From assembly GCA_964432985.1 (NCBI GenBank), contig CAYSPT010000011.1, forward strand, positions 21,257 to 85,256: DNA of 64,000 nucleotides. Direction: 5' to 3'. The notes beneath the pieces were generated by a model. That model was not told the DNA's origin. It ran no database searches and saw nothing but the letters and a program-made list of their open reading frames with translations. This document shows positions 6,790 through 57,458 of the stretch, in pieces. Both the position numbers and the translations under genes were made by a program. Position 1 is the first letter of the stretch; each line of letters begins with the position of its first letter. This stretch comes from an uncultured bacterium (GTDB lineage Bacteria > Muiribacteriota > CAYSPT01).

Positions 6790-6894
6790 CAGGTCGCGGC
6801 GGTAAAGTTTGTGAAGAGTTTGGACAGGTCGCGGCAGAACAGTTTGTGAAGAATTTGGACAAGTCGCAGCAGAACAGTTTGTGAAGAATTTGGA
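6790..6894. repeat. 35-bp tandem repeat x3 (caggtcgcggcagaacagtttgtgaagaatttgga)
   Basis: Units at 6790-6824, 6825-6859 and 6860-6894, plus a partial fourth. Intergenic, between the M14 and S8 genes. Confidence 0.95.
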
Positions 6895-6922
6895 CAGGGA
6901 GTTAAGAAAGGGGATTTGAAGT

Positions 6923-22700: not shown

Positions 22701-25700
22701 TGGATGACGGACATAGTGGGGGCATATTGTTGGTTTGATAATATGTTCTCGGTATTAAACGCAGCTCCTTCATTATGCTTTACTTTCATCTTGATAGTAT
22801 CGCCAACTTGGAAATCCAGTATTCTAGTTATTTCCGTATCTACCGTGATATTTGCAGAACGTCCCAGTCCATCGGACGCAGCTATTGCAGCATCATTCAC
22901 AACAAGGTAAATCCTTACGTATTCAGAATCATCCATGACTGCAGGAGTTCTTATACTGGCCGTTATTAAGTATTTTCCAGCTTTCTGAATGGCGAATTGA
23001 TCATTTGTGTCATCACCAATTCCGCCAATATTAAAGTCAACAGTATCAAATGCGATTAATGTTGCTGAGTCGTGAGGGATACTCTGCGCCACGGTTCTGG
23101 TCATCTTTGCCATGTGGGCAGTGTTCCCAGCGGTGGCGGCCATCTCTTCCCAACCGGTGTTGGTGCCGTCACCGGAGGCCTTGCGGTAGACCTGGCCGCT
23201 GGCGTGATCAGCGTAGATGGATCCGAGCTGCGCGGTAACCGCCCCTTCGGGAGCGCCGGAACCGGTGTAGATGCCTATAGAATCTGTGTTGGTTGAATCC
23301 TCAAGACGTAGCAATTCGTTATCCTCTACATCGGTGACGGTGAGCTTCGCGCCGGGTACCGTGGTGCCGATGCCGACGTTACCTGAGGAGATGACCAACT
23401 GATCGGTGCCGGCTACCAGGCCGTTGGCTGGCAGGGTGAGGGTGCCGGTCATGGTGTCGCCGGTAGTGTTCACCCAGCTGTCCGCTGTGGCAGCCATGAA
23501 TTCGTTCACCTCTGCAGTGGCGGCGGAGCCCAGGCCCAGGGTTGCACGCTGGGCGGCGGCGTCCGCGTCGTCGAGAAGTGTCCGGCCGGCGGTAGATAGC
23601 GGCGTTACCGCATAGGTGTCGGTACCGGTGGTGTAGAGCATTTTGTCAGCCGCTGTGGTCAGACCGGATATGGACTCAAGCGCCGCGTGAAACGCCTGCA
23701 CATCGGCGCCGATGGCGTCCGTCATGATCGCACCGGCTTCCGCCACGGTAGTGGGATTAGTAACGTCGGCGCCCGCGGTGATATCGTCCAGCTTGGCGCC
23801 GTCCGCGGACAGGTCGCGCCCGTCGATGGTGCATCCGGCGGCGATCTCCACGGTGGCCCCCAGGTAGACGGTCCCGGCCACCTTCAGCTTGTAGGCACCC
23901 GGATCGGCGGTGCCGATTCCCACGCTGTCCCCGGCGGTGGTGAGAGTGACGATGCCGGTGCCTTCGGTCCAACCGCCGGCGCTGCCCGTGGGTTGAATGT
24001 CCAGGGCTTTCCACTCGCTTCCGGTATAGCCCTCGAAGGTGCCGCCGTTGAACCGGATGGTACCGGCGTTGGTACCGGTGGTGGTCCCCAGGATAAGACC
24101 ACCTTCCACATGCAGCTTGTCTGCCGGGGCCTCGGTGCCGATGCCGACATTGCCGTCCTGAACGCGTAATACTTCTGTCACACCATCATTGAGGGTTATT
24201 GATCCGGTGTCCATGCATGTCAACTTGAGCATATCGTTACCGCCACCATGGGCGATAAATGATTTAACTGCTATACCTTCATAAAAGCGAATATAGGTGT
24301 TGTAGCCGGTGTTGTTCACCAGGCTTAAACCGTCGTTGTTAGAGGTGGTAACCACCGTCAGCCTGGTGGTGGGACCTCCGGTACCAATGCTTACGGAACT
24401 TTCGGTGGTAAGAACGCCGTCACCGACACTCCACGGCGAATAGAGGTTTATCGTCCCTTCGGTAAGGTCGTCGGTGGTTTTTGCGGAAAACGCGGTATCG
24501 AATCCCCCCGAAGTGAAGTACTTGTTGGTGGAACCTTCCGACAGGTTGTCGGTGGTCTTTCCGGACAGGGCCGTTTCGAACCGTGCCTGGGTGTAGTAGA
24601 GATTATCACCTTCCGCAACCGCAGTAGTGGTCAACGTTTCCCAGGTCTTATCACCACGGAAGTACTCGGTAGTGGCCCCGGTGGTGAGAGCCGCTTCCTT
24701 GCCATCCACCGCTGTCTGCAGGCTGTCGATGTCGCCTTGAAGACCATCAAGTTCGCCCTGCAGGTCGGTCTGACTGGAAAGCGTGCCGGTGATGCCGCCC
24801 CAGGCAGTGCCCGCCTGGAAATCGGGGGTCCAGTTCTCCCACCGCGACTTGGAAGCGCTGTATTTCAGTATCTGCCCGTCACCGGGTGAGGTGAGAGCAA
24901 CATCCAATAGATCGCCGGTCTGCTTTCCGCTGAAGGCGGCGTCGAATGCCGTCTGGGTGAAATACTGGTTGGTTGAACCCTTGGTTATATCGTCGGCGGT
25001 CTTCCCGGCCAGGGACGCGTCAAACCGGTCCTGGGTGTAATAGAGGTTGTCACCTTCGGTTACCGCCGAGCTGCTCAACGTCTGCCAGGTCTTGTCGCCC
25101 CGGAAGTACTCTGTGGTGGCGCCGGCAGTGAGAGCCGCTTCCTTACCATCCACCGCCGTCTGCAGGCTGTCTATGTCACCTTGCAAACCATCAAGTTCGC
25201 CCTGCAGGTCTGTCTGGTCGGCCAGGGTGCCGGTGATTCCACCCCAGACCGCATCCGCTGTAAAATCAGGCGTCCAGTTCTCCCACTGTGATGTGGATGA
25301 ATTGTACTTCAACAGTTGTCCATCACCGGGAGTGCTGAGTGTTACATCGGAGAGATCACCGGCCTGCTTTTGACCTAAAGCGGCGTCGAATCCTGACTGG
25401 GTGAAGTACTTATTGTTGGATCCTTCCGTGATATCGTCGGTGGTCTTCCCGGTCAGGGACGCGTCGAACCGCGTCTGGGTGTAATAGAGGCTGTCGCCTT
25501 CCGCAACAGCGGTGGTGGTCAACGTCTGCCAGGTCTTGTCGCCCCGGAAGTACTCGGTGGTGGCCCCGGTGGTGAGAGCCGCTTCTTTGCCTTCCACCGC
25601 TGTCTGCAGACTGTCGATGTCGCTTTGCAGGCTGTCAAGTTCGCCCTGCAGGTCCGTCTGATCGGAAAGCGTACCGGTGATATCGCCCCAGGTGGTGTCA

Positions 25701-32833: not shown

Positions 32834-32967
32834 AACGATACCTCCTCATTATTCCATACCCGAAGCAACCGGGGTATATTCAAAGTATTAGTTACTATAA
32901 GTATAACAAAAGTTGGAAAATAAATTTGAGCCGGCTTACCAAAGGGTGTTTTTTCAAATATGGCACC

Positions 32968-37765: not shown

Positions 37766-38076
37766 TGTGGCATTCTCCCATAAACATTGGGTTGATTATA
37801 ACATAATTAGTTTCTCGTTTAAATTTGACACGCGCCCCGCAACTTTGCACTATTGCTTTGTACAATTGATGAAGAAAAACATAGCAAACCACCAGTATGA
37901 AAAACGAAATCTGTCATGGCTCCGCTTAATCCGGATTCGTTACGTTTTGACAATGTCCGGCTTTACATAAATGATAGCCGATATTGCTAATTGTCTTTCG
38001 ATAGCCTATAATGATTCGCTTTAAGTGTTACTACATAGCTGGCATTGTTTGTTGAGCCATCTTACCAAAGGAGCTG

Positions 38077-41502: not shown

Positions 41503-42765
41503 ATGATGCCCTCATTAACACATGATGTTAGACCTGACGGGGATGGAAAATCCCAGATATTAAGTTTACGGGAAAAAGAGCTTCTTTCTTTAATAGAGAT
41601 CTGCAAGCTTATTGGTTCCGTAATTGTACGGGATGAATTGTTGAATACCATAATAAAGGTAGTAAGAGACCTATTGGACGCTGAAGGTGCGTCCATTATT
41701 ATTTTAAGTGAAGACAAGAAGGAGTTATTATTCTGTGTTGTAACCGGAGAAAAATCAGATATTCTCAAAAAGATACGCCTTAAATATGGTGAGGGTATAG
41801 CCGGGAATGTGATAGCCCAATGTATCCCCGTTATTGTTAATGACGCTCAAAATGATCCCCGGTTTTGCAGCAGGATTGATGATGAATCCGAATTCAAGAC
41901 ACGTAACATTTTATGTGTTCCGATGAAAGCGGGAAATAAAATAATTGGAGCCCTCGAGGTTGTTAATAAACGTAATAATAAAGACTTTGATTTTTATGAC
42001 TCAAAAATTTGTGAGGCCATGGCCAGCCAGCCAGGAGTAGCTATAGACAGGGCGGATTTGATAGAAGAAAATTTGAAATCAGCAAAATTAGCGACTATTG
42101 GTCAGACAGTCGCAGGATTGGCCCATTGCGTCAAGAACATATTAAACGGATTGGAAGGCGGGCAGTACATAGTTAAGCGGGGCTTGGAAAAGAACGATGA
42201 AGCAAAGATAAATCGTGGTTGGAATATGGTTGAAAAGAATATCAAACGTATTTCAACGATGGTTTTTGACATGCTTCATTATGTGAAAGATCGTAAACCC
42301 GAGTACGCCGAAGTAGATCCTAACCAAACAATAGAAGAGGTCAAAGATTTGTTCCTGGTCCAGGCGGAGAAGGCCGGGGTAAGAATTGAAACCAAAATGG
42401 ATAAGAATCTGAACAAAGCCATGATTGATCCGAAAGGTCTTTACCGATGCCTGGTCAACCTTGTCAGGAATGCCATTGATGCTTGTACCGAACTGGACAA
42501 TGAAGGTGTGGTCACTCTGGAATCACGGCTCGATTCAGACGACCATTTCATAATAAGTGTTAATGATAATGGAATTGGTATGGATGAACAGATCTTGAAG
42601 AATCTTTTTACGAAGTTTTTTAGTACGAAGGGATCAAAAGGAACCGGGTTAGGGCTGCCGGTAACGTATAAAATCATCCAGGAACATAATGGTTCTATAA
42701 ACGTAGACTCACGCTCCGGAGAAGGAACGACGTTCAGTATCAGTCTTCCGTTGCTTCAACCATAA
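41503..42765 (+). CDS. cytoplasmic GAF-domain sensor histidine kinase (orphan)
   Basis: GAF-like N-terminal half. H-box-like GLAHCVKNILNGL, N-box LVRNAIDA, G1 VNDNGIGM and G2 GTGLGLPV. No adjacent response regulator. Confidence 0.8.
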   Translation: MMPSLTHDVRPDGDGKSQILSLREKELLSLIEICKLIGSVIVRDELLNTIIKVVRDLLDAEGASIIILSEDKKELLFCVVTGEKSDILKKIRLKYGEGIAGNVIAQCIPVIVNDAQNDPRFCSRIDDESEFKTRNILCVPMKAGNKIIGALEVVNKRNNKDFDFYDSKICEAMASQPGVAIDRADLIEENLKSAKLATIGQTVAGLAHCVKNILNGLEGGQYIVKRGLEKNDEAKINRGWNMVEKNIKRISTMVFDMLHYVKDRKPEYAEVDPNQTIEEVKDLFLVQAEKAGVRIETKMDKNLNKAMIDPKGLYRCLVNLVRNAIDACTELDNEGVVTLESRLDSDDHFIISVNDNGIGMDEQILKNLFTKFFSTKGSKGTGLGLPVTYKIIQEHNGSINVDSRSGEGTTFSISLPLLQP

Positions 42766-43051
42766 TTCCCGCCTCGGGGAAAGAACGTCCTCCAGTATCA
42801 GTCTTCCGTTGCTTCAACCATCACCGACTGAAGTCGGTTGATTGATCACGGTTGAGGTTACGCAGTCTTCCTTCTCGCGGATAATAAACATTTGTAATGT
42901 ATTTCATTGTTGGGTGTGCCATGGTCACTCTGGGAGTCCTGAACGCAAAAGGTATTATCGTTGTTAACTGCATTAGCTTGTTTTGATATACTGCCTGATG
43001 TTTAACTCTAATTATTGAATCAAGCATAAATTTTGGGCAGGTAGATATTCG

Positions 43052-43855
43052 ATGATTCTAGATTCGCTGATTTTATGTGCCGTTATCGTTGAATTAATGC
43101 TGTTCATCAAGATTGGGCGCCTGAGCACCCGGAATAGATTAGTGCGCTATTTCCTAATATCTATTGGTTTTTTCATCATACTGAGTTTTTTACTTCACCA
43201 GCTGAGACCAGGTTTTTTTCCAGGTTATTTAGTGATCTGGAAGGTCGAATATATCTTGTTACTATCGGTCATATCACTGCTTGCCGGGATGAGAAGCCAG
43301 GTAGTAAAGAGTTCTCGCGAAAGGCGGCTCTTCGCAATTATTTTTAGTCTTGGTCTCTTCCTGGCATCTTTTCCTTTTCTCCTCCGGCCGTTTATGAGAG
43401 TTTCCTGGAGGGATAGTGAGCCAAGCTTCGTAGATGGAGTGTGCCTTCAGCAAGCCAGTTACAGTTGTGGCGCTGCCAGTATCAGCACGGTTATGAAACA
43501 TCATGGGTACGAATTCTCTGAAGGTGAAGCTGTGATTGCCACCTGGACGGTTCCGCTTCTCGGAACCGAACCTGACATGCTGGCTTCGGGAATAGAGAGT
43601 CTGACACACGATGCCTTACAATCTTCTGTTCACCGCACTCCTTTTGCTGAGATCGCACGAGAAAGGTTACCCTGTATTGTCGCTCTATACTGGAGCGGAC
43701 TGGTAAGCCACTACGTCGTGCTGTTCCAGCTTACTCCGGAAACAGCGGTCATTGGCGATCCGTTGGTAGGATCTGTGGAATATCCGGTCTCCTGGTTTTC
43801 CGGCCACTACCGGGGCTACTTGATCAGTGTCTCACCGAAAGCAGCTCGAAAATAA
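43052..43855 (+). CDS. membrane protein with C39-like cysteine peptidase domain
   Basis: Four N-terminal TM segments. QQASYSCGAASISTVMKHHGY (Q...C) and GLVSHYVVLF (His) resemble the peptidase C39 catalytic motifs. Confidence 0.6.
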   Translation: MILDSLILCAVIVELMLFIKIGRLSTRNRLVRYFLISIGFFIILSFLLHQLRPGFFPGYLVIWKVEYILLLSVISLLAGMRSQVVKSSRERRLFAIIFSLGLFLASFPFLLRPFMRVSWRDSEPSFVDGVCLQQASYSCGAASISTVMKHHGYEFSEGEAVIATWTVPLLGTEPDMLASGIESLTHDALQSSVHRTPFAEIARERLPCIVALYWSGLVSHYVVLFQLTPETAVIGDPLVGSVEYPVSWFSGHYRGYLISVSPKAARK

Positions 43856-44146
43856 CTGCATAATTCCACGTAATCCGCTCACGACTTCCTCTGGCGGCGC
43901 AGTCCAAAAGTTTCGATAATCGTCCACCAGCACCAGGAGTATATGGACCTATGATTCTGGAACCGGCAGCACTAACTTTGAATTTGGTACAATGATTGGG
44001 GTAGGTCACGGTTGGCGCCTGTACAAATCATCGGAATCGTGCTCTGCATAACCGGTGCAGCCCTGTCAACCTATTTTAAAAAGGTTTGAGTGCGATAACA
44101 CCGTTTGAAAACTCGTTCATCAAACCGGAGAACAGAGGAGATAACA

Positions 44147-44935: not shown

Positions 44936-45196
44936 ATGACTGACCCAGCCAAGAATTCATTCCTACGCAAAGACGACGGTTCGGTATTTCGGCTTGAAAC
45001 AGGCCAATCCGCTTCAGCCCGTATCCGTTCGGAGCACGGAATCCAGAGCAATATTGTTATAGGCGAAGCCGCTGGTAACACCGGCAGCACTCCTCCCGGA
45101 AGCGGTGAGGCTGACGACGGCAAAACACTGACAGCCGCCAATGGCGACCGAGTCACGCTCTACTATTTAAAAACCGCCCTCACACCAAGCCAATGA
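44936..45196 (+). CDS. small hypothetical protein
   Basis: 86-aa ORF starting 16 nt after the methyltransferase stop. No recognisable motif. Competes with an antisense ORF. Confidence 0.3.
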   Translation: MTDPAKNSFLRKDDGSVFRLETGQSASARIRSEHGIQSNIVIGEAAGNTGSTPPGSGEADDGKTLTAANGDRVTLYYLKTALTPSQ

Positions 45197-45632
45197 GCCA
45201 TTTGGGCTGGACCAGGCAATAACTGCTCTGGGAGTTGAAATAATACTCGCCTCCCCGTCCCAGGAAAGTGGGGTCCGTTTTAAGAATGTATCTCCACTCA
45301 GGCGCAGCAGGTTCGATCAGGCTGCGCAGCCGGGAGATGTTCGTCTTGACGGTGCGGAAATCGATAAAGGTGTCGTAATCCGCCAGCCAGACCGCCTCAA
45401 ACAGCTCACCCGCAGTGTAGCGCCGCCCGGCGTGGGTGATTAAGAAGCAGAGCAGCTTTCCCAGAACACGCTTGCGGAATAGGCTGATCTCGCCCAGCTT
45501 CTCCTCCCGGACCAGGCGGGTTTCCAGGTCAAGCCAGAGAGAAAAGTCGCGGCAACTGCCCCGCAAGGATTCAACCTCCTTACGGGACAGCTCCTGACGA
45601 CCTCCATGGGTGTACAGGAAGTAATCACTCAT
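45180..45632 (-). CDS. OmpR/PhoB-type winged-helix transcriptional regulator lacking a receiver domain
   Basis: LLCFLITHAGRRYTAGELFEAVWLADYDTFIDFRTVKTNISRLRSLIE matches the Trans_reg_C pattern (…l..L……v.sr..L...vW…….rtvdv.I.rLR.K…). Only 150 aa, with no Asp-pocket receiver. Confidence 0.65.
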   Translation of the reverse strand: MSDYFLYTHGGRQELSRKEVESLRGSCRDFSLWLDLETRLVREEKLGEISLFRKRVLGKLLCFLITHAGRRYTAGELFEAVWLADYDTFIDFRTVKTNISRLRSLIEPAAPEWRYILKTDPTFLGRGGEYYFNSQSSYCLVQPKWLIGLV

Positions 45633-45636
45633 GCGC

Positions 45637-45990
45637 TCAGATCACCTGGCCGGGCTGGTTGAACAACAACTCCTTATCCATCACCTTGGCAATGCGCAGC
45701 AGGCAGTAATCGAGGGTGCCGTCCTGCTCGCCAGCCCGGAACATCAGCTGAACAAAAGGAGAAGAGAAAAATGCATCGTTCTCATCCGTCAGACTCTTGC
45801 CCTGCTGGATGTTCTCCAGCATCTTTCCAATAGCCTCGGTGACCAGGACTGCACCGCGCGGCGGGGAAAAATCCTCCCGTAAAGCCTCCAGGCTGACCTG
45901 AATGGGAATGCCCGAGTGCAGCATCTGGCCAAACTTCTCACAAAATAGTGACATCAGAGACATGTGTAAGCGATCCATAATAACCTCCAA
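45637..45990 (-). CDS. stand-alone T2SS-F (GspF/PilC cytoplasmic) -like domain protein
   Basis: LHSGIPIQVSLEAL...LENIQQGKSLTD...FVQLMFRAGEQDGTLDYCLLRIA resembles the T2SSF domain pattern (l.sG.pl..aL..l...v..G.sls.al...fp..v..mi..GE.sG.L...l). Only 4 nt separate it from the regulator gene. Confidence 0.5.
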   Translation of the reverse strand: MEVIMDRLHMSLMSLFCEKFGQMLHSGIPIQVSLEALREDFSPPRGAVLVTEAIGKMLENIQQGKSLTDENDAFFSSPFVQLMFRAGEQDGTLDYCLLRIAKVMDKELLFNQPGQVI

Positions 45991-46080
45991 ATGAGTTTTT
46001 CGAAAGACGTCTTCCTGTACCTAAGGATAACAGATTCCGGTGCTGTTTCAAGTTACAACAAGGTTACAATTAGGTTACAG
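45873..46080. repeat. 208-bp direct repeat, copy A (5' end plus upstream region of 45637..45990)
   Basis: Aligns without indels to 53413-53620 at a constant offset of 7540 nt, roughly 90% identity by eye. Confidence 0.9.
46052..46079. promoter_or_regulatory. three GTTACA direct repeats at exact 11-bp phasing (candidate operator)
   Basis: GTTACA at 46052, 46063 and 46074, which is 62-89 nt upstream of the 45990 start on the minus strand. Duplicated at 53592, 53603 and 53614. Confidence 0.5.
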
Positions 46081-46380
46081 AGTAAGGAGGGTGGTACTCT
46101 ACACAGTAGTACACCATGATCTGCAGTGGCTTCATAGGATGGAACATGAGAAGACAGTAATTCTAGCCATTTTCCATTAAATGTCAATACTTTTGCAAAG
46201 CTATTGGGGTACTCAAAGGATATTAATATTCAGAAGAGTACGAAAATTCGAAGAAATAGAACACCTTCTAGATTTGATACCTGAGCGATCATGAATAGAT
46301 ATCAGATCATCGGGTATAATTGTTCTACCATAAACAGGAAGATATATTTCATCGCCGCTGTTTGTGAAAGTTGACAGAAT

Positions 46381-47409
46381 ATGAATGTTTCAAGTTTATT
46401 CAGGTACCCTTTGAATTATGTCCGGCACGGAGTTTTCGGGGACAAGATATGGTTGGACGCATCGAATGTCTGCCAGTTGAAGTGCCAGTTGTGTCCCACC
46501 GGACAAGAAGAGAGTACCGCCAGTACGGTAGGATCCGGTTTGCTGGGCTTCGACAACTTCAAGACAATTGTTGATGGCAACCCATGGATTAGAACCATAG
46601 AACTTTCTAACTGGGGTGAAATATTCCTTAATCCGGAGCTGGCACCGATCGTGCGCTATGCCTGCGAAAAGAAGGTGGGCCTGCGGGCGGGCAACGGTGT
46701 GAACCTCAACTCGGCGGAGGATGAAATGCTCGAGTGTCTGGTCAAATACCGGTTCAGGTTTCTTTCCGTTTCACTGGACGGCGCCAGTCAGGAAACATAT
46801 TCGCTGTACCGGATTAATGGTCATTTCCATCGGGCCCTCGATAACATAAAGAAGATCAACGACTACAAAAAAAAGTATCGGTCTGAATTCCCGAAGCTTC
46901 GTTGGCAGTTCATCGTTTTCGGTCACAACGAGCATGAGATTCCGGCGGCACGAGAAATGGCCCGGGACCTGGGCATGCATTTCAAACTGAAACTGAACTG
47001 GGATTCGACGTTCTCACCGGTCAGGAATAAAGAACTCGTAAAAAAAGAGTTAGGGTTTGATGCCTCCTCCCGGGAAGCCTTCAAAGAGCGGTATGGCGTC
47101 GAGCACATCCTTCCCTGCCTGCAGCTCTGGTTCGAACCGACCATCAACTGGAATGGTAAACTCCTGGGCTGTTGTGACAACTGGTGGGGGGATTTCGGCA
47201 ACGTCTTCGAACAGGGTTTGACGGAAACGTTGAAAGGCAATCGATTCACTTACGCCAGGCAGATGCTCATGGGGAAAAATCCCGAACGGAACGATATGCC
47301 CTGCGTCCGGTGCCGTTACTTCCATAGCATCAAGCGCTCAGGTAAGCCGATACGGTTTCTCCTCAAGCACATTGTGGTTCGAATAAAAGACAAAATAGTC
47401 AACTATTGA
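46381..47409 (+). CDS. radical SAM enzyme with SPASM/twitch-like C-terminal Cys-rich domain
   Basis: CQLKCQLCPTG is a CxxxCxxC motif. C-terminal CLQLWFEPTINWNGKLLGCCDNWWGDFGNVF...MPCVRCRYF has the SPASM-like Cys pattern. Confidence 0.75.
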   Translation: MNVSSLFRYPLNYVRHGVFGDKIWLDASNVCQLKCQLCPTGQEESTASTVGSGLLGFDNFKTIVDGNPWIRTIELSNWGEIFLNPELAPIVRYACEKKVGLRAGNGVNLNSAEDEMLECLVKYRFRFLSVSLDGASQETYSLYRINGHFHRALDNIKKINDYKKKYRSEFPKLRWQFIVFGHNEHEIPAAREMARDLGMHFKLKLNWDSTFSPVRNKELVKKELGFDASSREAFKERYGVEHILPCLQLWFEPTINWNGKLLGCCDNWWGDFGNVFEQGLTETLKGNRFTYARQMLMGKNPERNDMPCVRCRYFHSIKRSGKPIRFLLKHIVVRIKDKIVNY

Positions 47410-47470
47410 TTCAACTATATGAATCTGACAAAACAAAAGTCCTCTACGCAGGGTGGATGAGGAAATGAGG

Positions 47471-47490
47471 CCCTAAGCGACTGGATTTGA
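47471..47490 (+). repeat. 20-nt recurring motif, copy 1 (ccctaagcgactggatttga)
   Basis: Matches 53736-53755 and 63666-63685 (cctatgcgactggatttga) with one or two mismatches. Confidence 0.7.
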
Positions 47491-47768
47491 CATAATTTTA
47501 AAAATAAAATATACTATCTATTCCAACAAAAAGCTTATTAATTAAGAATCTTATCCTTAATAAGCAAACGTTTATTTTAAGCAAAAATAATTAATTGCAA
47601 ATGTACTACTTATAACTAGCTTACAAGGTATATTCTGGTTTTTTATAAATCTACCGTTTTAAACAACGTTTTATCACTTATAAGCTTATTTTAAAAGGAA
47701 ATTTTGATAATTCATATTTAAACATTGTTTTTCAAATATAGAACGCATTCCTGGAAAGGGTTTTTATC
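47491..47768 (+). promoter_or_regulatory. ~280-bp extremely AT-rich leader/promoter region upstream of kamA
   Basis: Visibly AT-dominated in an otherwise GC-rich window. Contains the inverted repeat cttattaa-N15-ttaataag and a repeated 'aagcttatt' word. Confidence 0.5.
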
Positions 47769-49076
47769 ATGACTTCATCGCAGGCTCGGAAAATCGCCGA
47801 GCGGATTCAATCAGATGTCAGCGTATCCCACTGGCGGAATTGGCGCTGGCAGTTGAAGCATACCATCCAAAAGGTATCGTCGGTGGAACGGCTCCTGAAG
47901 ATCACCTTCAAGGCCAAGGAGCGGGCCTTGCTCGAACAAACAATCAAGAAATTTCCCCTGGCGGTAACGCCGTACTACCTCTCGCTGATCGACCGGGATG
48001 ATTTTCGCAACGATCCGATCTTCAAGCAGGCTATTCCAAACCATCACGAACTGGTCATCGAGCACAGCGACATGAAAGACCCGCTGGCGGAGGACGCGGA
48101 CAGCCCCGTACCGGGCATTACTCACCGGTATCCCGACCGGGTGCTGTTTCTGATCAGCAACATCTGCTCCATGTACTGCCGGCACTGCACCCGCAAGCGG
48201 AAAGTCGGTGACGTTGATTTCATACCCGACCGTGAGGTGATCATGCAGGGAATCGAGTACATACGAAAGACGCCGGTGATCCGGGATGTTCTGCTGTCCG
48301 GTGGCGATCCGCTCATGCTTACCGACGATTACCTGGACTGGATTTTAACCGAGTTGCATTCCATCGACCACGTGGAAGTGATACGTATCGGCACCCGCAT
48401 GCCCGTGGTCCTCCCGTACCGTGTCACGGACGATCTGGTGGCCGTGCTCAAGAAGCATCACCCGCTGTGGATCAATACCCAGTTCAACCATCCGCGGGAG
48501 CTGACCCGCTCGTCCCGGGAAGCTTTGCGCAAACTGGCCGATGCCGGTCTCCCGCTGGGCAACCAGTCGGTCTTGCTGGCCGGGATAAACGACTGTCCCC
48601 GCATCATCAAGAAGCTGGTTCACAAGCTGGTACAGAACCGGGTGCGGCCGTATTACATGTACCAATGCGACCTGGCGGAAGGGCTGACCCACTTTCGCAC
48701 TCCGGTGGGTAAAGGCCTGGATATCATCGAGGGCCTCATCGGGCACACCAGCGGTTTCGCGGTCCCCACGTATGTGGTGGATGCTCCCGAGGGCGGCGGC
48801 AAGATCCCCATCATGCCCAACTACATCATCTCCTGGTCCACCAACCGGGTGGTATTGCGCAATTACGAGGGGGTCATCACCACCTATCGGGAACCCGACT
48901 CCTACGAGCCGATCTTCTGCGACCGGAACTGTACGGATTGCGATCTTCAGCTCAAACTGGACGACGCCGAGGAGATCGAGGCTACGGGGATCGAAAAGCT
49001 CCTGTGGGATTGGGACAAAACCACGTCACTCGTGCCCGAAGACACCGATCGTATTGTCCGCCGGGACGAGGAATGA
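47769..49076 (+). CDS. kamA: lysine 2,3-aminomutase (radical SAM, PLP-dependent)
   Basis: [12 protein letters not shown] cluster motif, LLSGGDPL, and [20 protein letters not shown] with the PLP lysine. C-terminal Cys cluster CDRNCTDC. 435 aa. Confidence 0.9.
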
Positions 49077-49143
49077 TCCGCCCGTAAGCGCAGTTGCTGT
49101 CCAAATGGTGATTCCCATTGCTTGTATCCAGGAAGGGAGAACA

Positions 49144-50067
49144 ATGACTAATCTTGCCTCATTCATGAAGGTGATCCCCGTAACCGACAACCCGGAAGTG
49201 AAGGCCGTTTACGCCTGTGATTTTCCGGCTAGCGGTGGAGAAAACGGTTCGGCGGTGTTTGATATTTATAATCGGCGTCTGAAGCTCTACACTATCGCGC
49301 CGGCGGATTACGTGCGATGCCTGACCGGCAGGGAGGCTGGCCGGCCGGTCGATCTCCCGCCGGATATTACCAAGGTTACGGTATACGCCCGGCCAGGTGA
49401 CGGGTGGCGCCGGCATGGTTTCGAGCGCGAAGCGATCATCAGGGGCTTCTTCGCCGATGGGACCGATGCCTGGCTCTGGGCCCTGTACACCGATTTAGAA
49501 CGCGGCCGCGACCAGCGTGAAGAAGAGCATATGATAATCACTAAAATCGCCAGCGCAAAGGCACCGGCCACTCCCGAACTAAATACCGTCGAGTACACCT
49601 GCTGCCGCGCCGTGGCCGGTGACGCCGGCGAAATCGCCGCGCTGCTGCTGGAGATCTTCCCGGATTATCCCAGCCCGCTGACAGAGGAGTACATCCGGAA
49701 CCGCATCGAGAAAAAAATAAGCCATTTCCGTTTCATCCACAATAACGACGGGGCAATGGTCGCGGCGGCATCCGCGGAGATCGACCATTGCAATAAGAAC
49801 GCCGAAATGACCGACTGCGCCACCAGACCCTCGGCCAGGGGTCAGGGGCTCATGGCGTACCTGCTGTGGATGTTGGAGAACGACCTGCAGGAACTCTACA
49901 ACATTACCGACCTGTACACTATCGCCCGGGCTGACGAGGTGGGTATGAACTGCGTCTTCAGCAAGCTGGGTTATATATATGACGGCCGGCTGGTAAACAA
50001 CTGCCGTATGCCCAATGGCTGGGAGTCCATGAACGTCTGGTGCAGGCAAACCTCTCTGAACGGATGA
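49144..50067 (+). CDS. ablB: GNAT acetyltransferase, beta-lysine N6-acetyltransferase (AblB)-like
   Basis: Sits immediately downstream of kamA. GGAAGGGAG RBS before ATG 49144. C-terminal GNAT core TRPSARGQGLMAYLL. ~307 aa, a two-lobed size typical of AblB. The assignment rests on context plus recalled family features. Confidence 0.65.
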   Translation: MTNLASFMKVIPVTDNPEVKAVYACDFPASGGENGSAVFDIYNRRLKLYTIAPADYVRCLTGREAGRPVDLPPDITKVTVYARPGDGWRRHGFEREAIIRGFFADGTDAWLWALYTDLERGRDQREEEHMIITKIASAKAPATPELNTVEYTCCRAVAGDAGEIAALLLEIFPDYPSPLTEEYIRNRIEKKISHFRFIHNNDGAMVAAASAEIDHCNKNAEMTDCATRPSARGQGLMAYLLWMLENDLQELYNITDLYTIARADEVGMNCVFSKLGYIYDGRLVNNCRMPNGWESMNVWCRQTSLNG

Positions 50068-50073
50068 TACACA

Positions 50074-50628
50074 GTGAAAAACATCGCGCATGTTGATACT
50101 CGGGACGATGATTACTCTTCCCACCCGGCGCCGGCGGGCGAGGAAAATCCGGATGCCGTTTTAACTCTTCGTCAGGCGGTTCCGGGTACCGGTGACGTTG
50201 CCGACCTCCTGGCGAGTGAGCAGCAGGCCTTCGGTGATAAGAGCTTCACTATCTGGGCGGTTGAGCCGCTCTGCCGCCACGGCGCCGCGTACCTGTTCGA
50301 ATTCGATGGTAACGTCGTCGGGCACGCTCTGCTCATGAAGGAATGGACTAATCCCGCAAGCGTCTACCTGGCCAGCTTTGCCATTGACAGCCATTACCGC
50401 GGACGAGGTCTGGGCCGCCGTTCGCTCAGACTTTTGCTTGACGAACTTCGCGGGCAGGATATTGCTCTTGCAACTCTGACGGTCGACCCGGTCAACCAGT
50501 CTGCCTGCGGGTTATACCGCAGCGAGGGGTTTTATGTTAACAAGACGGTTTCCGACCAGTACGGGCCCGGTGAGGACCGGTACGTGATGGCGGTCTCGCT
50601 TTCAGCAGAAAAATGCATGGTAACCTGA
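50074..50628 (+). CDS. GNAT family N-acetyltransferase
   Basis: Motif A SHYRGRGLGRRSLRLLL and GFY near the C-terminus. The start codon is uncertain (GTG 50074). Confidence 0.7.
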   Translation: MKNIAHVDTRDDDYSSHPAPAGEENPDAVLTLRQAVPGTGDVADLLASEQQAFGDKSFTIWAVEPLCRHGAAYLFEFDGNVVGHALLMKEWTNPASVYLASFAIDSHYRGRGLGRRSLRLLLDELRGQDIALATLTVDPVNQSACGLYRSEGFYVNKTVSDQYGPGEDRYVMAVSLSAEKCMVT

Positions 50629-50662
50629 AAGGCACCTATGAAAATCCGTTAGGTGAAAGGAG

Positions 50663-53173
50663 ATGGGCGTGAAGCTTCCAGACATCACGTTTGACGTTCA
50701 GTTCGATCGGTCGGGGATTACCAGGCAGGTGTCCCTGACGGCTTTGATTGACCAGGTGATCGAGTTACTCGAGAACCATGGGGTGGAGCCCATCATCGAC
50801 CGTAAAACATACGCCGTAATCGGGACGGGAGATGGTATCTCCCGCTTATCCCGTCTACTGGATACCGCCGGGTTTCCCCGTGACCCGCGGGGATTTTTCG
50901 GCGAGCTTTTGAAGCAGCTGCAAACCGCAGGCTGCGGACGGGCCCTGACGGTAAAGATAGGTAAGGTCGTTGTCCCTTACAACCTGCTCCTGGCTGTGCT
51001 GGAAGTGGTGATACCGGGCAACAAGTTCGTTACGGTGAAGACCGTGCGCCAGCTGGAGCGGCTCTGCAACATCAGCGTTCCGGCCGGAGAACGGCCGGCC
51101 ATGCAGCTGGTACTGGACACCTACCCGGTGCGCTTTTCCCTGCACACGCTCAGGCAGATGCACCTTTCTCCGGCGGTGGCGGCCCAGTACATGCCGTTCA
51201 TTGATGAGCTTAACCACGAGGGCCTGGTGCACACCTGGGTAGGGCAGTTCCACCGGGGTGTGCTGGAGCAGATGTACCGCAACCGGGTCATCTTCATCCT
51301 GAACATGTGGTGCCCGGTATACTGCCGCTTCTGTTTCCGCAAGCACAAGGAGTGCCGCAATCAGCGTCCACCCACCCAGGCGGCGGTCAAGGAGGCGCTC
51401 GGATACCTGCGCCAGGCAGAGCATGTCAAGGAGGTTGTCCTGACCGGCGGCGATCCGTTCATGAACAGCGCCACGCTGCGTTACGCCATCGACGGGTTGG
51501 CCAGAATCCCCCACATCAGGGTGCTCAGGATTGCCACCCGTTCGATCTCGTACTATCCCGACCTGTTCTACCGCGACGACTCTTTCTGGTTCCACTACCT
51601 GCAGCAAAAGAACTACGAGCTGCGTTATAAAAATAAGCGGATCGAAATCGCCACCCACTTCATCCATCCCGACGAGGTATCTGTTTACAGCCTGGATATC
51701 ATCAATCGGCTCACCGGAAACGGTATTCCCGTGTACGTGCAGACGCCCTTTATCGGCGGTTGCAACGACGACGGAGATATTCTGGCATCCCTGTTCAGCC
51801 GCCTGCGCGCCGCCGGGGCGGAGAATCACTACATCTTTATGCCGTGCAGCCCCCTTCAGGGCAACCGGGTGTACGGCACCACCATCGCTAGCGGTTTCGA
51901 AACCGCCCGGCGGATGCGCGCCTATCTTTCGGATCGGGCCATCCCCAAGATGTGCACCGCCACCTCAATCGGTAAGATCGACTGGAACACCAGCGGCTGG
52001 GCGGTGGAGCGGGACGAGGAGGATCCCCGGTACTTGTGGATCCGTACGCCCTATACCTACGAGTATTTCGCCTCGTTTACCCCGATCCTGCAGTTGTCGG
52101 AATTGGTACGTCCTAACTCCGGCGGCACCCTGGACGCCAGGTTCATGGTTGACGTGGGTGACGACCGGCTCCTCAAGGGCCGGGAATTCGGCCGCCGGCC
52201 GGTTCCGCGCGTGGCGGATGTGCTGCCGCACATCGTCGCCAGCGAGCGGGCGCAGCGGGATGACCTTGAATTCCTGCAGCATTTCGCGCTCAAGGACCAG
52301 CGTGTCTCACGGTCGGTGGTCGGCACGGGATCGCCGTCTATATCACGGGTCCACCTGACCAGGGTTGAGCTTGACTGCCTGGCGCCGGACCATGAGATGG
52401 GCGCCACCTTGAAATACATCAAACATGACCGCAGGATCACTGACGTGGTGCTCTTCTCGCGGCGGGGCATCATTCGGAACCTGTACCGCGTCGGGCGGAT
52501 CATACAACGCTTGAACTCCATGCGCCACGTGCAGAGCATCCGGCTGCGGAGCCTCAAGTTCACCTACCAGCCGCATGAATATACCCCGACCGCGGTAAAG
52601 AAAATAGTCTCCTTCAATCATCTCGATGTCACCGGGTCGAAACGGTTGGAAATCGAGGCCCGGTTTATGCATTCAAGCGAGTTTACCGGCGCTCATCAGC
52701 GGCTGGTCAACGCCTTCCTGCGCCGCGGGGTGACAGTCTACAACAACACGCCGCTGCTGGCGCACATCAACGACACCCCCGGGGAGATGAACCGGATAGC
52801 CTACCGATGCCGGGAACTGGGGCTTGAGTTCCATCACTGTTACGTAGCCGGGCTGCCGATCCAGATTTTCTGGGGGCACAGGCATCCGCTCGATCTTAGC
52901 CGGGTCACCCGTATCGCGAGCTTCGTGCGCAAGTACGGCAGTGGGCGTGAGATTCCCCGTTACATTATCCGAACCCCGCTGGGAGAGGTGGATTACGATC
53001 TGACATCCGAGATAGTGAAGGTCGATGACGGCGGCCGGATTATGGTCAGACTACTGCCCTACGATCTTGAATATTTCAGGAGTATGGATAAGGAATTCAC
53101 CTTGCCTGCCGGAGGCAGAATCGATGATGACGGAATGATCCTGGTCCCGGTAGACGGGCTCCGCCAAGGATAG
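50663..53173 (+). CDS. 836-aa tandem KamA-like protein: one intact radical SAM/PLP aminomutase-like domain plus one degenerate KamA-like barrel
   Basis: Domain 1 has CPVYCRFCFRKHK (51309-51340 region), LTGGDPF and SIGKIDW (Lys retained). Domain 2 (52436-53000) aligns to KamA (ITDVVLFSRRG~[24 protein letters not shown]~[28 protein letters not shown]~[16 protein letters not shown]). It has no CxxxCxxC motif and no Lys. Confidence 0.8.
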   Translation: MGVKLPDITFDVQFDRSGITRQVSLTALIDQVIELLENHGVEPIIDRKTYAVIGTGDGISRLSRLLDTAGFPRDPRGFFGELLKQLQTAGCGRALTVKIGKVVVPYNLLLAVLEVVIPGNKFVTVKTVRQLERLCNISVPAGERPAMQLVLDTYPVRFSLHTLRQMHLSPAVAAQYMPFIDELNHEGLVHTWVGQFHRGVLEQMYRNRVIFILNMWCPVYCRFCFRKHKECRNQRPPTQAAVKEALGYLRQAEHVKEVVLTGGDPFMNSATLRYAIDGLARIPHIRVLRIATRSISYYPDLFYRDDSFWFHYLQQKNYELRYKNKRIEIATHFIHPDEVSVYSLDIINRLTGNGIPVYVQTPFIGGCNDDGDILASLFSRLRAAGAENHYIFMPCSPLQGNRVYGTTIASGFETARRMRAYLSDRAIPKMCTATSIGKIDWNTSGWAVERDEEDPRYLWIRTPYTYEYFASFTPILQLSELVRPNSGGTLDARFMVDVGDDRLLKGREFGRRPVPRVADVLPHIVASERAQRDDLEFLQHFALKDQRVSRSVVGTGSPSISRVHLTRVELDCLAPDHEMGATLKYIKHDRRITDVVLFSRRGIIRNLYRVGRIIQRLNSMRHVQSIRLRSLKFTYQPHEYTPTAVKKIVSFNHLDVTGSKRLEIEARFMHSSEFTGAHQRLVNAFLRRGVTVYNNTPLLAHINDTPGEMNRIAYRCRELGLEFHHCYVAGLPIQIFWGHRHPLDLSRVTRIASFVRKYGSGREIPRYIIRTPLGEVDYDLTSEIVKVDDGGRIMVRLLPYDLEYFRSMDKEFTLPAGGRIDDDGMILVPVDGLRQG

Positions 53174-53219
53174 ATGGATTTTTGTAGGAGTTCAAAGAAC
53201 ATTCCATGGATACACAATA

Positions 53220-53441
53220 ATGGAGCTTGACAGCACGCAGAGGAAAATAGTCGACAGCCTCAGAGATTTGAGACTGCCTCCCGGCGCACGGATTCTGGAA
53301 CTAGGGATGGGGCGCGGGGGCCACACAATACCGCTCAGAGCGGCTTACCCTGAGGCCTGGATAACCGGCTATGACCTGGCAAAGTGTCAGATTGGAGGCA
53401 GGCCCGACCGGCCCTCCCGTAAAGCTTCCAGGCTGACCTGA
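53220..53441 (+). pseudogene. truncated class I SAM methyltransferase (N-terminal ~60 aa only)
   Basis: Motif I ILELGMGRGGH and ITGYDL are present. The reading frame then runs into direct-repeat copy B (from 53413) and terminates. Confidence 0.6.
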
Positions 53442-53620
53442 ATGGGAATACCCGAGTGCAGCATCTGGCCAAACTTCTCACAAAATAGCGACATCAGAGA
53501 CATGTGTAAACGATCCATAATAACTTCCAAATGATTTTTTTGAAAGACGTCTTCCTGTATCTAATGATACCAGACCCCGGTGCCATTTCAAGTTACAGCA
53601 AGGTTACAAATAGGTTACAG
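53413..53620. repeat. 208-bp direct repeat, copy B (orphan promoter/operator plus first ~35 codons of the T2SSF-like gene)
   Basis: See copy A. The minus strand encodes MDRLHMSLMSLFCEKFGQMLHSGIPIQVSLEAL and then diverges and stops. GTTACA x3 at 53592, 53603 and 53614. Confidence 0.9.
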
Positions 53621-53735
53621 AACCAGGTAAGTGCGCGAGTTCGAATCATCTTTAACTTTCCACGCATACCTAATCAGAGGGTGGTACAAGCAAGTTTTCA
53701 AAACAGAAGCGTGAGATGCCTCAATTCCTCAGCCA

Positions 53736-55094: not shown

Positions 55095-57458
55095 ATGAAA
55101 AAGGTACTCAATAAACTGCATCACATTCTTGCGCCGATGTTTCTCTGGTTCTTCCTGTCTTTCGTTATTGTTTCAGCGCCTGGCGCTCCGGCCGCTGAAC
55201 CATCAAATGCCGCGGGTGTACATTCATCTTTCACGGGAATACCATCAAATGCTGAGAGTGGTATTTCGCGCCCCCTGATCCTGAAGCATTTCTCAGAGAC
55301 CCTGATTAGATCATTCGAGATTTCACTCCAGGAATTCAAGAACCCGACTCTTGCAAAATGGCTTGGAACCGTCAGTTCACCAGACAGGCTGTCCGGATCG
55401 ACCCTGCACGAACTTTTTAATGAATTCAGCAGTCATCTTCTCCAGGTACTATCGGCCACTGAGCTTGCCGGTCAGGAGGATACTCTCTGGAAAGCCATGC
55501 AACGCTCGGCCAATTTTCTCCGTCTCGATGATCGCCCTCTGGAAGAGAATTTACCTCTTTTAAAAATCGAACGTTCGCTCGAAAAATCTCCGCCTTTCAC
55601 CAGAGAGATAGACAATACCAGTTCCACTGTCGTCGAAGTCAACTGGCCTGGAATCGATCACTACACAGAAGATCGTCTCGGTCCGCTGGAAGTCCTTATC
55701 AATATCCTGAATCCGGCAGACCGGGTGATTCTGACAAATACAGATCTCAGTGAAGTGCTGGCTGGAATGACTGACCTGGTCTCTCTGGTCAGATACAATC
55801 TGCCGATTTCCTCGTATGGGAAAAATATCACTCTGGCAACTAAATCCGATGGGAAAAAAATCCTCGTCCTCTCAGGTTTTGACAGCAAAGCCTACCTGCT
55901 TCATTTCGGACTGATCATAAATCGATACAGACGGATCAAAAAAAAGCAGTTCTCCATTTTTGAATTTATCGATCCGAAAAGCCTGAAAAATAGTTACACC
56001 CAGCTCCTGTTATTCGCTCAGAAGCATCCTTCCCTTTTTTCTTCCCTGGACGCCATCGTGATCGGTTACGATTCGGCATTCCGGGAGCAGTGGAAGGAAT
56101 ATGAAACCGCCGTTGCCTGCCAGAGAGGCTTCCCTGGTGAAAACTGGGGGATCAATGTATTCCGCTTCCCTGAAGGAAAAACAGCCGGAGTCCTGACAGG
56201 AGATGTGGACTATTACGGAGAAGGTCTGGTCTGTCAAATTGAGACACTGATATCCCGTTTTCCAGTTAAACAGGTTTTCTTTGGCGGATCGGGAGGGGCT
56301 GTCATTCCCCGCCCGATCTATGATATGTACTACCCTTCCGTGATAAGATCATCCAACGTAATCAGATCATCCCCCGGGTATGAAACCACCAATGTGCTGA
56401 CCGGATCAAGTGATGCGGGAACCCATGTCAGCGTGAATTCGCCGCTCTATGAAACCCCCCTGCTGCTGGCTCGGTTTCAAGCCGCCCATTACAATACCGT
56501 CGATATGGAAGCGGGTCATCTTGCCCGTCTGGCCGGAAAACACGGTATGGAAGTAGGTGTCGGAATCCTTGTCACCGATTTCCCGCCCGGTTTCGAAAGC
56601 ATTGACGTCACCTTCGCTAAGCAGAATTTCATGGCCAAGCAGAAAGCCAGGGCCGATTTTGTCCGCAAGGTGGAAGCGTATGTGAGGCGGAATGAGATAA
56701 CCTACCTGCACTTCCTGGAACGGCTGACCGGTAAGACCATACTGGAAATCAGCCGTGAAACACTCACCAGCCATCGCGATAAAATAGGCCTGTTTTCACC
56801 AGAGGAACAGGAGGTTGTCCGGCGCCTCTTCACCCTCCCCTTCCGAATTGTCGTTCGAATGAGCCCCGGACGTCTGCACTGGACACTGAAAGACAGCGCC
56901 CTGTTCTCCACCGGACTGCTAAACAGTCTCGGCAAGAAGACCGATCCGTTCACGCCCGAACTTGAAGACCAGATGTTCGGCGCCTTCGATTATATATTCG
57001 CATCATACTGCACCGATTTCGGACAGAGCATGTACGGAGATGTTATCGTCCTCCTCAAACCCGAGGAGATACTGCCCCGCAGTTGGGGTTCCCGGGCATC
57101 AGGATGGCGGGTCGCAGGTTACAAAAAAGGCTCCCCGCTGGAAGTCCACCAGAAAAACTTCCTCCGGGAAGTACTGCATCCCAGCCATTACCGTGAAGCC
57201 ATGGAACTTCAAGCCGTGTACCGTTACCGCCGTCTGAAACCTTCAACCCGGAAAATGCTCATGAACCGCCCCGTAGAAACCTGGCCTTCAATTTTGTATG
57301 AGATCGGTTTCGGCAAACTCGAATTAAAGATAAAATCGCACGTTCTAACCAGAGAGATCCAGCGCGTCATACTGCCCCCGTCAGTCCGCGGGGAGATTCC
57401 AGGCATGCTGAAACAGCATAACATCCCCTTCGAATATTACCGAACCGATGATAAATAG
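55095..57458 (+). CDS. large hypothetical protein with N-terminal anchor/signal and an internal PNP/UDP-phosphorylase-like segment
   Basis: FFGGSGGAV ... NTVDMEAGHLARLAGKHGMEVGVGILVTDFP resembles the nucleoside phosphorylase (PNP_UDP_1) motif vDME.aa.a.va......v..vsD. The flanking ~300-aa regions are unrecognised. Confidence 0.55.
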   Translation: MKKVLNKLHHILAPMFLWFFLSFVIVSAPGAPAAEPSNAAGVHSSFTGIPSNAESGISRPLILKHFSETLIRSFEISLQEFKNPTLAKWLGTVSSPDRLSGSTLHELFNEFSSHLLQVLSATELAGQEDTLWKAMQRSANFLRLDDRPLEENLPLLKIERSLEKSPPFTREIDNTSSTVVEVNWPGIDHYTEDRLGPLEVLINILNPADRVILTNTDLSEVLAGMTDLVSLVRYNLPISSYGKNITLATKSDGKKILVLSGFDSKAYLLHFGLIINRYRRIKKKQFSIFEFIDPKSLKNSYTQLLLFAQKHPSLFSSLDAIVIGYDSAFREQWKEYETAVACQRGFPGENWGINVFRFPEGKTAGVLTGDVDYYGEGLVCQIETLISRFPVKQVFFGGSGGAVIPRPIYDMYYPSVIRSSNVIRSSPGYETTNVLTGSSDAGTHVSVNSPLYETPLLLARFQAAHYNTVDMEAGHLARLAGKHGMEVGVGILVTDFPPGFESIDVTFAKQNFMAKQKARADFVRKVEAYVRRNEITYLHFLERLTGKTILEISRETLTSHRDKIGLFSPEEQEVVRRLFTLPFRIVVRMSPGRLHWTLKDSALFSTGLLNSLGKKTDPFTPELEDQMFGAFDYIFASYCTDFGQSMYGDVIVLLKPEEILPRSWGSRASGWRVAGYKKGSPLEVHQKNFLREVLHPSHYREAMELQAVYRYRRLKPSTRKMLMNRPVETWPSILYEIGFGKLELKIKSHVLTREIQRVILPPSVRGEIPGMLKQHNIPFEYYRTDDK

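Follow-up and report, generated by a model that had tools for sequence, protein, structure and literature searches.

In integrase-type islands the att repeats duplicate the end of a gene, typically the 3' end of a tRNA gene, and Campbell-type integration by a single crossover leaves direct repeats equal to the homology used. Among regulatory sites, the classical PhoB-type geometry consists of 7-bp direct repeats separated by 4-bp spacers beside the -35 element. Gene order can also change by tandem duplication and random loss, a model for gene-order change in mitochondria (PMC3283314), and the ablA/ablB pathway makes N-epsilon-acetyl-beta-lysine, a compatible solute of methanogens and some bacteria (PMC1224877). 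We compared with these systems a locus in a 64,000-nt stretch of contig CAYSPT010000011.1 (the window), from an uncultured bacterium of the Muiribacteriota, in which two direct repeats of 209 bp flank a kamA(ablA)-ablB-like-GNAT operon that also encodes a double-KamA protein (dKamA). An earlier note on this DNA had read the locus as a 7.5-kb island dropped into a promoter. We favour, with moderate confidence, a different reading: the repeats would be the remains of a duplicated regulator cassette that flanked the native operon and was then half deleted, which would make them a commonplace scar of rearrangement rather than the trace of a mobile island.

Alignment with MAFFT, together with a repeat finder, placed copy A of the repeat at 45873-46081 and copy B at 53413-53621, both read on the minus strand. 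The two copies align over 209 nt with 193/209 positions identical (92.3%), 16 mismatches, no gaps and a constant offset of 7540; the similarity has abrupt edges on both sides, and the longest perfect tract is 38 nt. In a repeat search of the whole window, this pair was the sole long dispersed repeat besides a giant gene and a tandem-duplicated region at 1-2.8 kb. The pairwise alignment that the earlier note had called for upheld the repeats, ungapped and at an offset of 7540 nt, while moving their length from 208 bp to 209 nt and their ends from 46080 and 53620 to 46081 and 53621. A repeat of 209 bp is also, as had been argued, not a target-site duplication. Copy A holds the operator, the promoter, the ribosome-binding site (RBS) and the first 35 codons of a live T2SSF-like gene (45637-45978, minus strand, ATG at 45978). 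It therefore covers the 5' end and upstream region of a gene as described, the extent of the coding part being 35 codons plus 1 nt and not ~37 codons. Copy B holds the same elements, orphaned. The live T2SSF-like gene is followed after 4 nt by an orphan OmpR/PhoB-type winged helix-turn-helix (wHTH) gene (45180-45632, minus strand), and these two genes with their upstream elements make up the cassette.

In the direction of transcription, on the minus strand, both copies carry in the same order three heptamers, a promoter, a 5' untranslated region (UTR), a Shine-Dalgarno sequence, an ATG and 35 codons. The putative operator of copy A (46052-46079, minus strand) reads TGTAACC-N4-TGTAACC-N4-TGTAAC, giving an 11-bp phase, and abuts the -35 element; in the putative operator of copy B (53592-53619, minus strand) all three heptamers are intact. 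Next to these lie the sigma-70-like, promoter-like sites P_A (46024-46051, minus strand; TTGAAA-16-TATCCT with a TG extension) and P_B (53564-53591, minus strand; TTGAAA-16-TATCAT with a TG extension, 10/12), the latter facing the 3' end of the operon. The -10 element of copy B is nearer consensus than that of copy A, and the Shine-Dalgarno sequence is GGAGG in copy A and GGAAG in copy B. The paired-heptamer pattern matched four times in the window, two overlapping matches per three-heptamer array, against a shuffle expectation of 0.2; no further operator copy was found elsewhere in the window, and the kamA promoter shows no sign of one. An array in the same phase precedes the cassette genes in all three populations in which they occur. 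It reads TGTAACCttttTGTAACCttttTGTAAC in a close relative, whose homologue is 93% identical, and TGTAACCcagaTGTAACCtagaTTTAAC in a distant population with a 45%-identical homologue, where the rest of the upstream region is unalignable. Copy A, copy B and the close relative differ by 16 non-coding substitutions, 0 of them inside the heptamers. Since the array is kept in all three populations, its heptamers are free of substitutions and its geometry is of the PhoB type, the cassette is probably autoregulated by its own wHTH protein. We infer, on support that we regard as good, that this array is the candidate operator to which the wHTH protein would bind.

A further near-consensus sigma-70-like site, TTGACA-16-TAGAAT (46160-46187, minus strand), stands upstream of P_A in the new flank and is directed at the cassette. 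Arrays of the form TGTAACC-N4-TGTAACC-N4-TKTAAC also occur in 60 viral contigs (IMG/VR), where a rough estimate would expect <1; they often have extra copies, and several stand, as judged by eye, just upstream of small-terminase-like open reading frames (ORFs). We rejected these contigs as relatives of the cassette, as 0/60 encode a relative of a cassette protein, and treat them as unrelated use of the motif.

The evidence that carries the reading we favour comes from the close relative, a second population (samples ERZ247946xx) that is the only informative outgroup. Its block of giant gene, cupin, HAL and BipA genes is 86.6% identical in nt to that of the window, and its amylase gene 85.6%. 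At the locus itself, the relative has kamA, a 314-aa ablB-like gene, GNAT, substrate-binding protein (SBP)/permease, ATP-binding cassette (ABC) and dKamA genes reading rightwards; these are met by AAA_14, wHTH and T2SSF-like genes and their promoter/operator reading leftwards, after which come a giant gene and a PNP-like gene, both rightwards. In the window, dKamA and a truncated methyltransferase gene (MT') read rightwards and are met by the T2SSF-like fragment, P_B and the p178 gene reading leftwards, followed by TPR and PNP-like genes reading rightwards. The PNP_UDP-like gene (55095-57458, plus strand; 93.8% nt identity) is a synteny anchor, found past the cassette in the relative and past copy B in the window. 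Copy B stands where the relative has its whole cassette: it converges on the operon's 3' end and lies towards the PNP-like gene. Operator copies number one per locus in the relative and two in the window population. The outer flank of copy B (53622-53650, minus strand) is homologous to the upstream region of the relative's cassette at 25/29 nt, in a match that spans a deletion of ~31 nt and whose score was reached by 0/1000 shuffles, whereas the outer flank of copy A scored against the relative at the shuffle mean.

The cassette of copy A loses its homology with the relative at the wHTH gene's final sense codon (...QPKWL* vs ...QPKWLIGLV*) and, at its other end, <=9 nt beyond the first heptamer. 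The left breakpoint of the relocated cassette lies at 45196-45197, where homology with the relative ends and where an 86-aa ORF (p86, 44936-45196) has its stop. The last 4 codons and the stop of the wHTH gene are supplied by this new left flank, as antisense of the 3' end of p86, and the native stop is lost. The cassette boundaries share no motifs that would indicate a cassette-shuffling system. Since the relative's lone cassette stands at the site of copy B, and flank homology is found at copy B only, copy B is most likely the remnant left at the ancestral site, and copy A, the live cassette, stands at a newly formed junction. An island dropped into a promoter does not fit this arrangement: the relative already has operon and cassette adjoining, with the cassette at the copy B site.

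At the inner edge of copy B, two truncated genes abut at 53412/53413. The orphan ORF on the minus strand (53387-53518) has 43 codons, of which 35 are T2SSF-like and encode the same 35 residues as copy A (MDRLHMSLMSLFCEKFGQMLHSGIPIQVSLEALRE); these run, as the earlier note had said, into unrelated sequence, here 8 novel codons and a stop. The ORF that copy B cuts on the plus strand, MT' (53220-53441), consists of 64 own codons, where ~60 had been claimed, and 9 from the antisense of copy B. Its own codons contain motif I of S-adenosylmethionine (SAM) methyltransferases and match Pfam Methyltransf_25 over positions 1-33 of 97 (E=0.006), and its similarity to a neighbouring methyltransferase has a BLASTP E value of 8e-6. 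MT' thus appears to be a truncated gene, which may be assigned, at weak scores, to the class I methyltransferases; the cut itself stands, and the family call is the softer part of the earlier claim. A homology search with MT' returned the fragment itself only, with no full-length parent and no pre-deletion state. The idea that MT' is a recent paralogue of the methyltransferase gene left of copy A was rejected, as the two share generic motif-I similarity only.

In a three-way comparison over 209 nt, copy A has 8 lineage-specific changes, copy B 7 and the relative 9. Since this comparison yields a star, the duplication is about as old as the split of the two populations' cassettes and not recent. 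The 105 coding nt contain 4 differences between A and B, all at third positions and all synonymous. Changes specific to copy B number 1 in these 105 coding nt vs 6 in the 104 non-coding nt (one-sided Fisher p=0.058), and 0 of them are nonsynonymous vs 2.5-8 expected under neutral evolution of copy B from the duplication onwards. Because all coding differences between A and B are synonymous, copy B probably headed an intact, selected gene for most of this time, the truncating deletion being recent. Such a long intact phase would in turn mean an intermediate with two full ~0.9-kb cassettes flanking the operon. A crossover mosaic or change-point among the differences between A, B and the relative was looked for, and none was found.

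The history that we favour would start from a locus with one cassette, a unit of ~0.9 kb made of the three phased heptamers, the promoter, the T2SSF-like gene and the orphan wHTH gene, convergent with the 3' end of a native kamA-ablB-GNAT-dKamA operon on the PNP-like side. A second copy of the cassette would have joined the operon at its 5' end, and for a time the operon would have stood between two full, directly repeated cassettes. As the route to this state we lean towards duplication in situ, in which operon and cassette would have been duplicated in tandem, the redundant operon copy lost and, later, most of cassette B lost as well; a variant of this route would be a copy-and-paste of the cassette alone. 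A later and probably recent deletion would then have removed T2SSF-like codons 36-113, the wHTH gene and the 3' part of the methyltransferase gene from the original copy. What is left of that copy would be copy B, and copy A would now be the sole working cassette. We infer this order of events and the two-cassette intermediate from what is observed at the locus, namely the repeat and its anatomy, the arrangement in the relative, the flank homology, the composition and the lack of mobility genes and empty sites. Both mechanisms proposed earlier, incomplete tandem duplication and integration of a circle, live on as candidates that the data do not separate. The part of those proposals that falls is the use of the 209 bp as the homology: on either route the repeat is probably a secondary product of the deletion, the remnant of a ~0.9-kb cassette and not the original repeat unit, homology or target duplication.

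This history resembles tandem duplication and random loss in that a block is doubled, each gene has a single survivor, the order is changed, a truncated remnant stays at the old site and the outgroup keeps the single-copy order. It differs in that it concerns a bacterial chromosome and a unit that includes promoter and operator, that the full-duplicate intermediate is putative and that gene exchange is suggested as well by the high divergence of the operon. Those features of duplication and loss that can be tested are present here, since the paralogous copies are in direct orientation, one of them is truncated and the outgroup's one copy stands where copy B does. The same structure is compatible with a Campbell-type origin, and in every respect in which an integrase-type island can be tested it is unlike one.

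Composition also bears on the origin of the operon. The G+C content at third codon positions (GC3) is 0.65-0.77 in the kamA...dKamA operon and 0.70-0.72 in the cassette, next to 0.67-0.74 in the core genes (HAL, BipA, amylase, AcrB). Genes outside the repeats (GAF-kinase, C39 peptidase, methyltransferase, p86, p178, TPR, PNP-like) have values of 0.37-0.59. By composition, the supposed island looks native and its surroundings look acquired, and a foreign composition of the island cannot be upheld: operon and cassette are host-like and the genes outside the repeats atypical. The relative's operon is host-like in composition too.

Some of our results weigh against the history favoured above. Synonymous divergence (dS) from the relative is 0.94 for kamA, 1.0 for dKamA, 2.4 for GNAT and saturated for ablB; it is 0.20-0.53 for core genes (BipA 0.20), 0.11-0.20 for the cassette and 0.09 for the PNP-like gene. 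With operon dS thus running from 0.94 to saturation vs 0.2-0.5 in the core, and with gene content differing as well (ABC-transporter genes in the relative, the radical-SAM (rSAM)/SPASM gene and MT' in the window), one lineage probably exchanged its operon, for which a purely in-situ history has no explanation. In the cassette and the PNP-like gene, dS does not exceed the lowest core values, a hint of gene flow here. The comparison turns on a single informative outgroup population, and the collections searched yielded no genome in which both cassettes are complete or MT' is full-length. The star-like three-way tree does not show copy B and the relative's copy to be sisters, and copy B may lack nonsynonymous changes because of gene conversion, or of selection acting on the relic, and not because of a long intact phase. 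The aminomutase operon locus (47769-53173 vs L022 5029-12502 in the relative) is a mosaic of different ages, its ablB-like products sharing 55% aa identity.

The most serious alternative, which we nevertheless regard as unlikely, is a single crossover of the Campbell type, in which a circle from a related donor, carrying the rSAM...dKamA genes, MT' and its own cassette, would have integrated in a resident cassette and left the operon between two hybrid cassette copies, copy B being trimmed later. The repeats bracket exactly the inserted-looking block in the same orientation, and the novel outer junction of copy A beside the ancestral outer flank of copy B is what such an event, reversible in principle, predicts. 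It would bring in a xenologous operon, to which an operon dS of 2-5x the core, the differing gene content, and the rSAM/SPASM gene and AT-rich spacers (27-37% GC) that the relative lacks would be suited, yet operon and cassette already adjoin in the relative, which makes their association older than the proposed insertion, and the GC3 of the operon is host-like. The 8% divergence between A and B could date from the integration itself, but their differences show none of the mosaic or change-point expected of hybrid copies, and the cassette halves stand only ~8% apart while the operons are at dS ~1. The 209-nt repeats would here have to be a diverged remainder after deletion, no circular or empty-site form was seen among the contigs, and circle formation, crossover and deletion amount to at least as many steps as the duplication route needs.

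A second alternative concerns what copy B does now and is compatible with either origin. The orphan promoter of copy B does face the 3' end of the operon, as the earlier note had it, and its elements are intact. P_B lies ~385 nt from that 3' end, and no convincing terminator was found between P_B and the dKamA stop, the sole candidate hairpin (z=-1.4) being no better than shuffles. If the wHTH protein activates P_A, it would activate P_B as well, leading to antisense or convergent transcription into MT' and dKamA and to titration of the regulator. By default, we take copy B to be a young and still undecayed relic. We consider it improbable that copy B is kept by selection, either as a second promoter/operator under wHTH control, acting through antisense transcription, titration or looping, or for a 43-aa peptide. 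The heptamers, the -35 element, the spacer length, the better -10 element, the ATG and the 35 codons have remained intact despite 6 copy-B-specific changes in 104 non-coding nt, and the dearth of coding change (0 nonsynonymous vs 2.5-8 expected; 1 vs 6 changes in coding and non-coding positions, p=0.058) and the lack of a convincing terminator before the dKamA stop agree with selection. A recent truncating deletion is, however, the simpler account of this pattern; the Shine-Dalgarno sequence of copy B is weakened from GGAGG to GGAAG, 7 copy-B-specific changes give the tests low power, and 35 residues are about one-third of the 113-residue T2SSF-like domain. More doubtful still is the specific version in which the old operator-promoter, perhaps with the 43-codon ORF, would have been retained at the 3' end of the operon as a second wHTH target once the cassette had moved; the regulator would switch on its own operon and simultaneously drive antisense or convergent transcription into dKamA, or else it would bridge the arrays 7.5 kb apart. 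If true, it would mean that a rearrangement scar has turned into a regulatory device for an osmolyte-type operon.

To place the window in its population, contigs were traced by the exact T2SSF-like protein (n=17) and the exact p178 protein (n=24), 41 in all, from many samples (ENA SUTE22-1 and SCRA20-1; JGI 3300007511 and 3300013119). The arrangement is unchanged in every sufficiently long contig; over the two junctions, the contigs compared match the window at >=99.9% identity, and in all of them A and B differ at the same 16 positions. Since independent samples and assemblies are identical across both junctions, an assembly artefact is ruled out. None of the 41 contigs has an empty site or an alternative junction, and the prediction that the island can loop out fares poorly, with 0/41 empty sites and a longest perfect A/B tract of just 38 nt. 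Because that tract is so short, loop-out of the RecA type, while possible, should be rare. Scaffold L005 (window position 46349) has 118 nt of unrelated sequence and N10 between copy A and the rSAM gene, either a scaffold gap artefact or an untraceable minor variant. No integrase or transposase was found among substantial ORFs from 38 to 61 kb in Pfam and NCBIfam scans, in line with the earlier note, and the window contains no tRNA or tmRNA gene.

An integrase-type island with att-like repeats, or an artefact of assembly that duplicated the promoter region, is very improbable, for although direct repeats bracket a functionally coherent gene block with a gene end duplicated at its far side, and although the data are metagenomic, the duplicated part is the 5' end and promoter of a protein gene, recombinase and tRNA genes are lacking over the stretches just given, the repeats are 209 nt long and just 92% identical instead of short and near-perfect, composition is host-like, the 41 contigs show no presence/absence polymorphism, the relative has the operon too, and both the junctions and the 16 A/B differences are the same in contigs that differ in sample, assembler and data set.

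The two cassette proteins resemble known families in domain and differ from them in build. The T2SSF-like protein (113 aa) is a single GspF/PilC-type cytoplasmic domain that scores 39.8 bits with Pfam PF00482 vs a cut-off of 25.2, and the solved structures closest to it are those of the PilC (2WHN) and EpsF (2VMA) cytoplasmic N-domains. GspF/PilC platform proteins of type II secretion and type IV pili, which share the T2SSF domain above the Pfam cut-off, have two such domains, membrane segments and ~400 aa and are encoded in a secretion or pilus cluster. The cassette protein, in contrast, has one domain and no membrane segments, and its gene adjoins a wHTH gene with no secretion genes nearby; it is a relative of the T2SSF domain and not a secretion platform protein. 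The wHTH protein (150 aa) scores 39.2 bits with Trans_reg_C (PF00486) vs a cut-off of 26.2 and has the DNA-binding domains of VicR, WalR and PhoB as its nearest solved relatives. It shares with PhoB/OmpR regulators, as known from the pho box and the PhoB-DNA structure 1GXP, this domain and, in its putative operator, 7-bp direct repeats at an 11-bp period beside the -35 element. It differs in its length, in having an unassigned N-terminal region of 58 aa and in being co-transcribed with a single-domain T2SSF-like protein. No match to Response_reg was found in it, just 58 residues preceding the wHTH domain, and the lack of a receiver domain means that it is no response regulator, even though the cassette would be PhoB-like as an autoregulated unit.

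This pairing of a stand-alone T2SSF protein with an orphan wHTH protein is extremely rare, occurring in three populations among 5.8 billion proteins. In that set the T2SSF-like protein has two homologue clusters, at 93% and 45% identity, and in all three populations the T2SSF-like gene precedes the wHTH gene. Other T2SSF-like matches, among 1.84 billion representative proteins, are all but one GspF/PilC proteins of ~400 aa. The pair was not found in 185,579 species-representative genomes; scans of this collection with dKamA and with the wHTH alignment gave no relative and added no outgroup, and a metagenome scan with the wHTH alignment gave only a contig already among those analysed.

The genes between the repeats are those named in the earlier note: the rSAM/SPASM gene, kamA, the ablB-like gene, GNAT and the double-KamA gene. 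The rSAM/SPASM gene (46411-47409, plus strand) is divergent from copy A, separated from it by a spacer of 300 nt with 37% GC, and is absent from the relative's locus. The operon (47769-53173, plus strand) follows a spacer of 360 nt with 27% GC and a strong promoter-like site; in this AT-rich leader, ~250 nt upstream of kamA, stands the near-consensus sigma-70-like site TTGACA-17-TATACT (47487-47515, plus strand). A search with Rfam gave no credible riboswitch or other RNA family in 44.0-55.5 kb. The kamA product falls in the AblA equivalog family of lysine 2,3-aminomutases (TIGR03820, 765.8 bits vs a cut-off of 525.4), and its gene adjoins that of an AblB-like GNAT protein that scores 198.2 bits with TIGR03827, below the cut-off of 205.1. 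The operon also encodes a second GNAT protein and dKamA (50663-53173), an 836-aa KamA-family protein with two KamA-like stretches. An AblA equivalog beside an AblB-like GNAT is what the ablA/ablB pathway has as well; the operon here differs in the AblB score just under the curated cut-off and in the extra second GNAT and 836-aa KamA-family protein. We take kamA...dKamA to be a putative osmolyte-type operon. The dKamA family has ~1000 matches at 50-54% identity in many phyla. This uncharacterised family of 820-860 aa is found in candidate division KSB1, Acidobacteriota, Aminicenantes, Desulfobacterales and others. Because the KSB1 homologue stands alone, with no adjacent ablAB, dKamA is not a fixed member of ablAB operons.

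Elsewhere in the window, a 20-nt direct repeat, TTGAGCCNNCTTACCAAAGG, at 32926-32945 and 38052-38071 brackets a 5.1-kb block of L-PSP-like, PD40 and DUF6057 genes on the minus strand. Its right copy is the 5'-UTR/RBS of the amylase gene and its left copy an orphan, and the relative has a guanylate-cyclase gene in place of the block. This second scar of the same style suggests that such events are common in this genome. The genome is also rich in local duplications, among them a tandem duplication of ~960 bp at 1034-2770 (84-97% identity), a 17-nt tandem array of >=11 copies at 4730-4992 and three 35-nt repeats at 6770-6898. At the 3' end of the GAF-histidine-kinase gene, a 58-nt tandem repeat (42709-42821) is polymorphic in copy number, contigs L001 and L003 having 116 nt more. 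The neighbouring C39-peptidase gene (42962-43925), with ~90 nt of flank, is 95% identical to one in a third population (GCA_024711605.1), where its neighbours are toxin-antitoxin and ParB-like genes; it behaves as a sharply bordered cassette of one gene. The giant gene at 16781-28246 encodes 3821 aa with internal repeats of ~1 kb. Its 5' end (from 26445) is ~87% identical in nt to the relative's giant gene beside cupin, and its product has no BLASTP similarity to that of the relative's different, 3834-aa giant gene beside the cassette.

Once a related genome is compared, what looks like an island with insertion scars becomes a rearrangement within a conserved neighbourhood, in which the orphan copy marks the old position of the cassette and the live gene its new one. 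Events of this type are common in bacterial genomes, and no open question hinges on this one. Its by-product is a clean candidate operator, three TGTAACC at an 11-bp phase, defined by the repeat and by two further homologous operons. As a very rare regulator pair that accompanies an ablA/ablB-like operon, the cassette offers a directly testable promoter/regulator system, and this is the most reusable product of the analysis.

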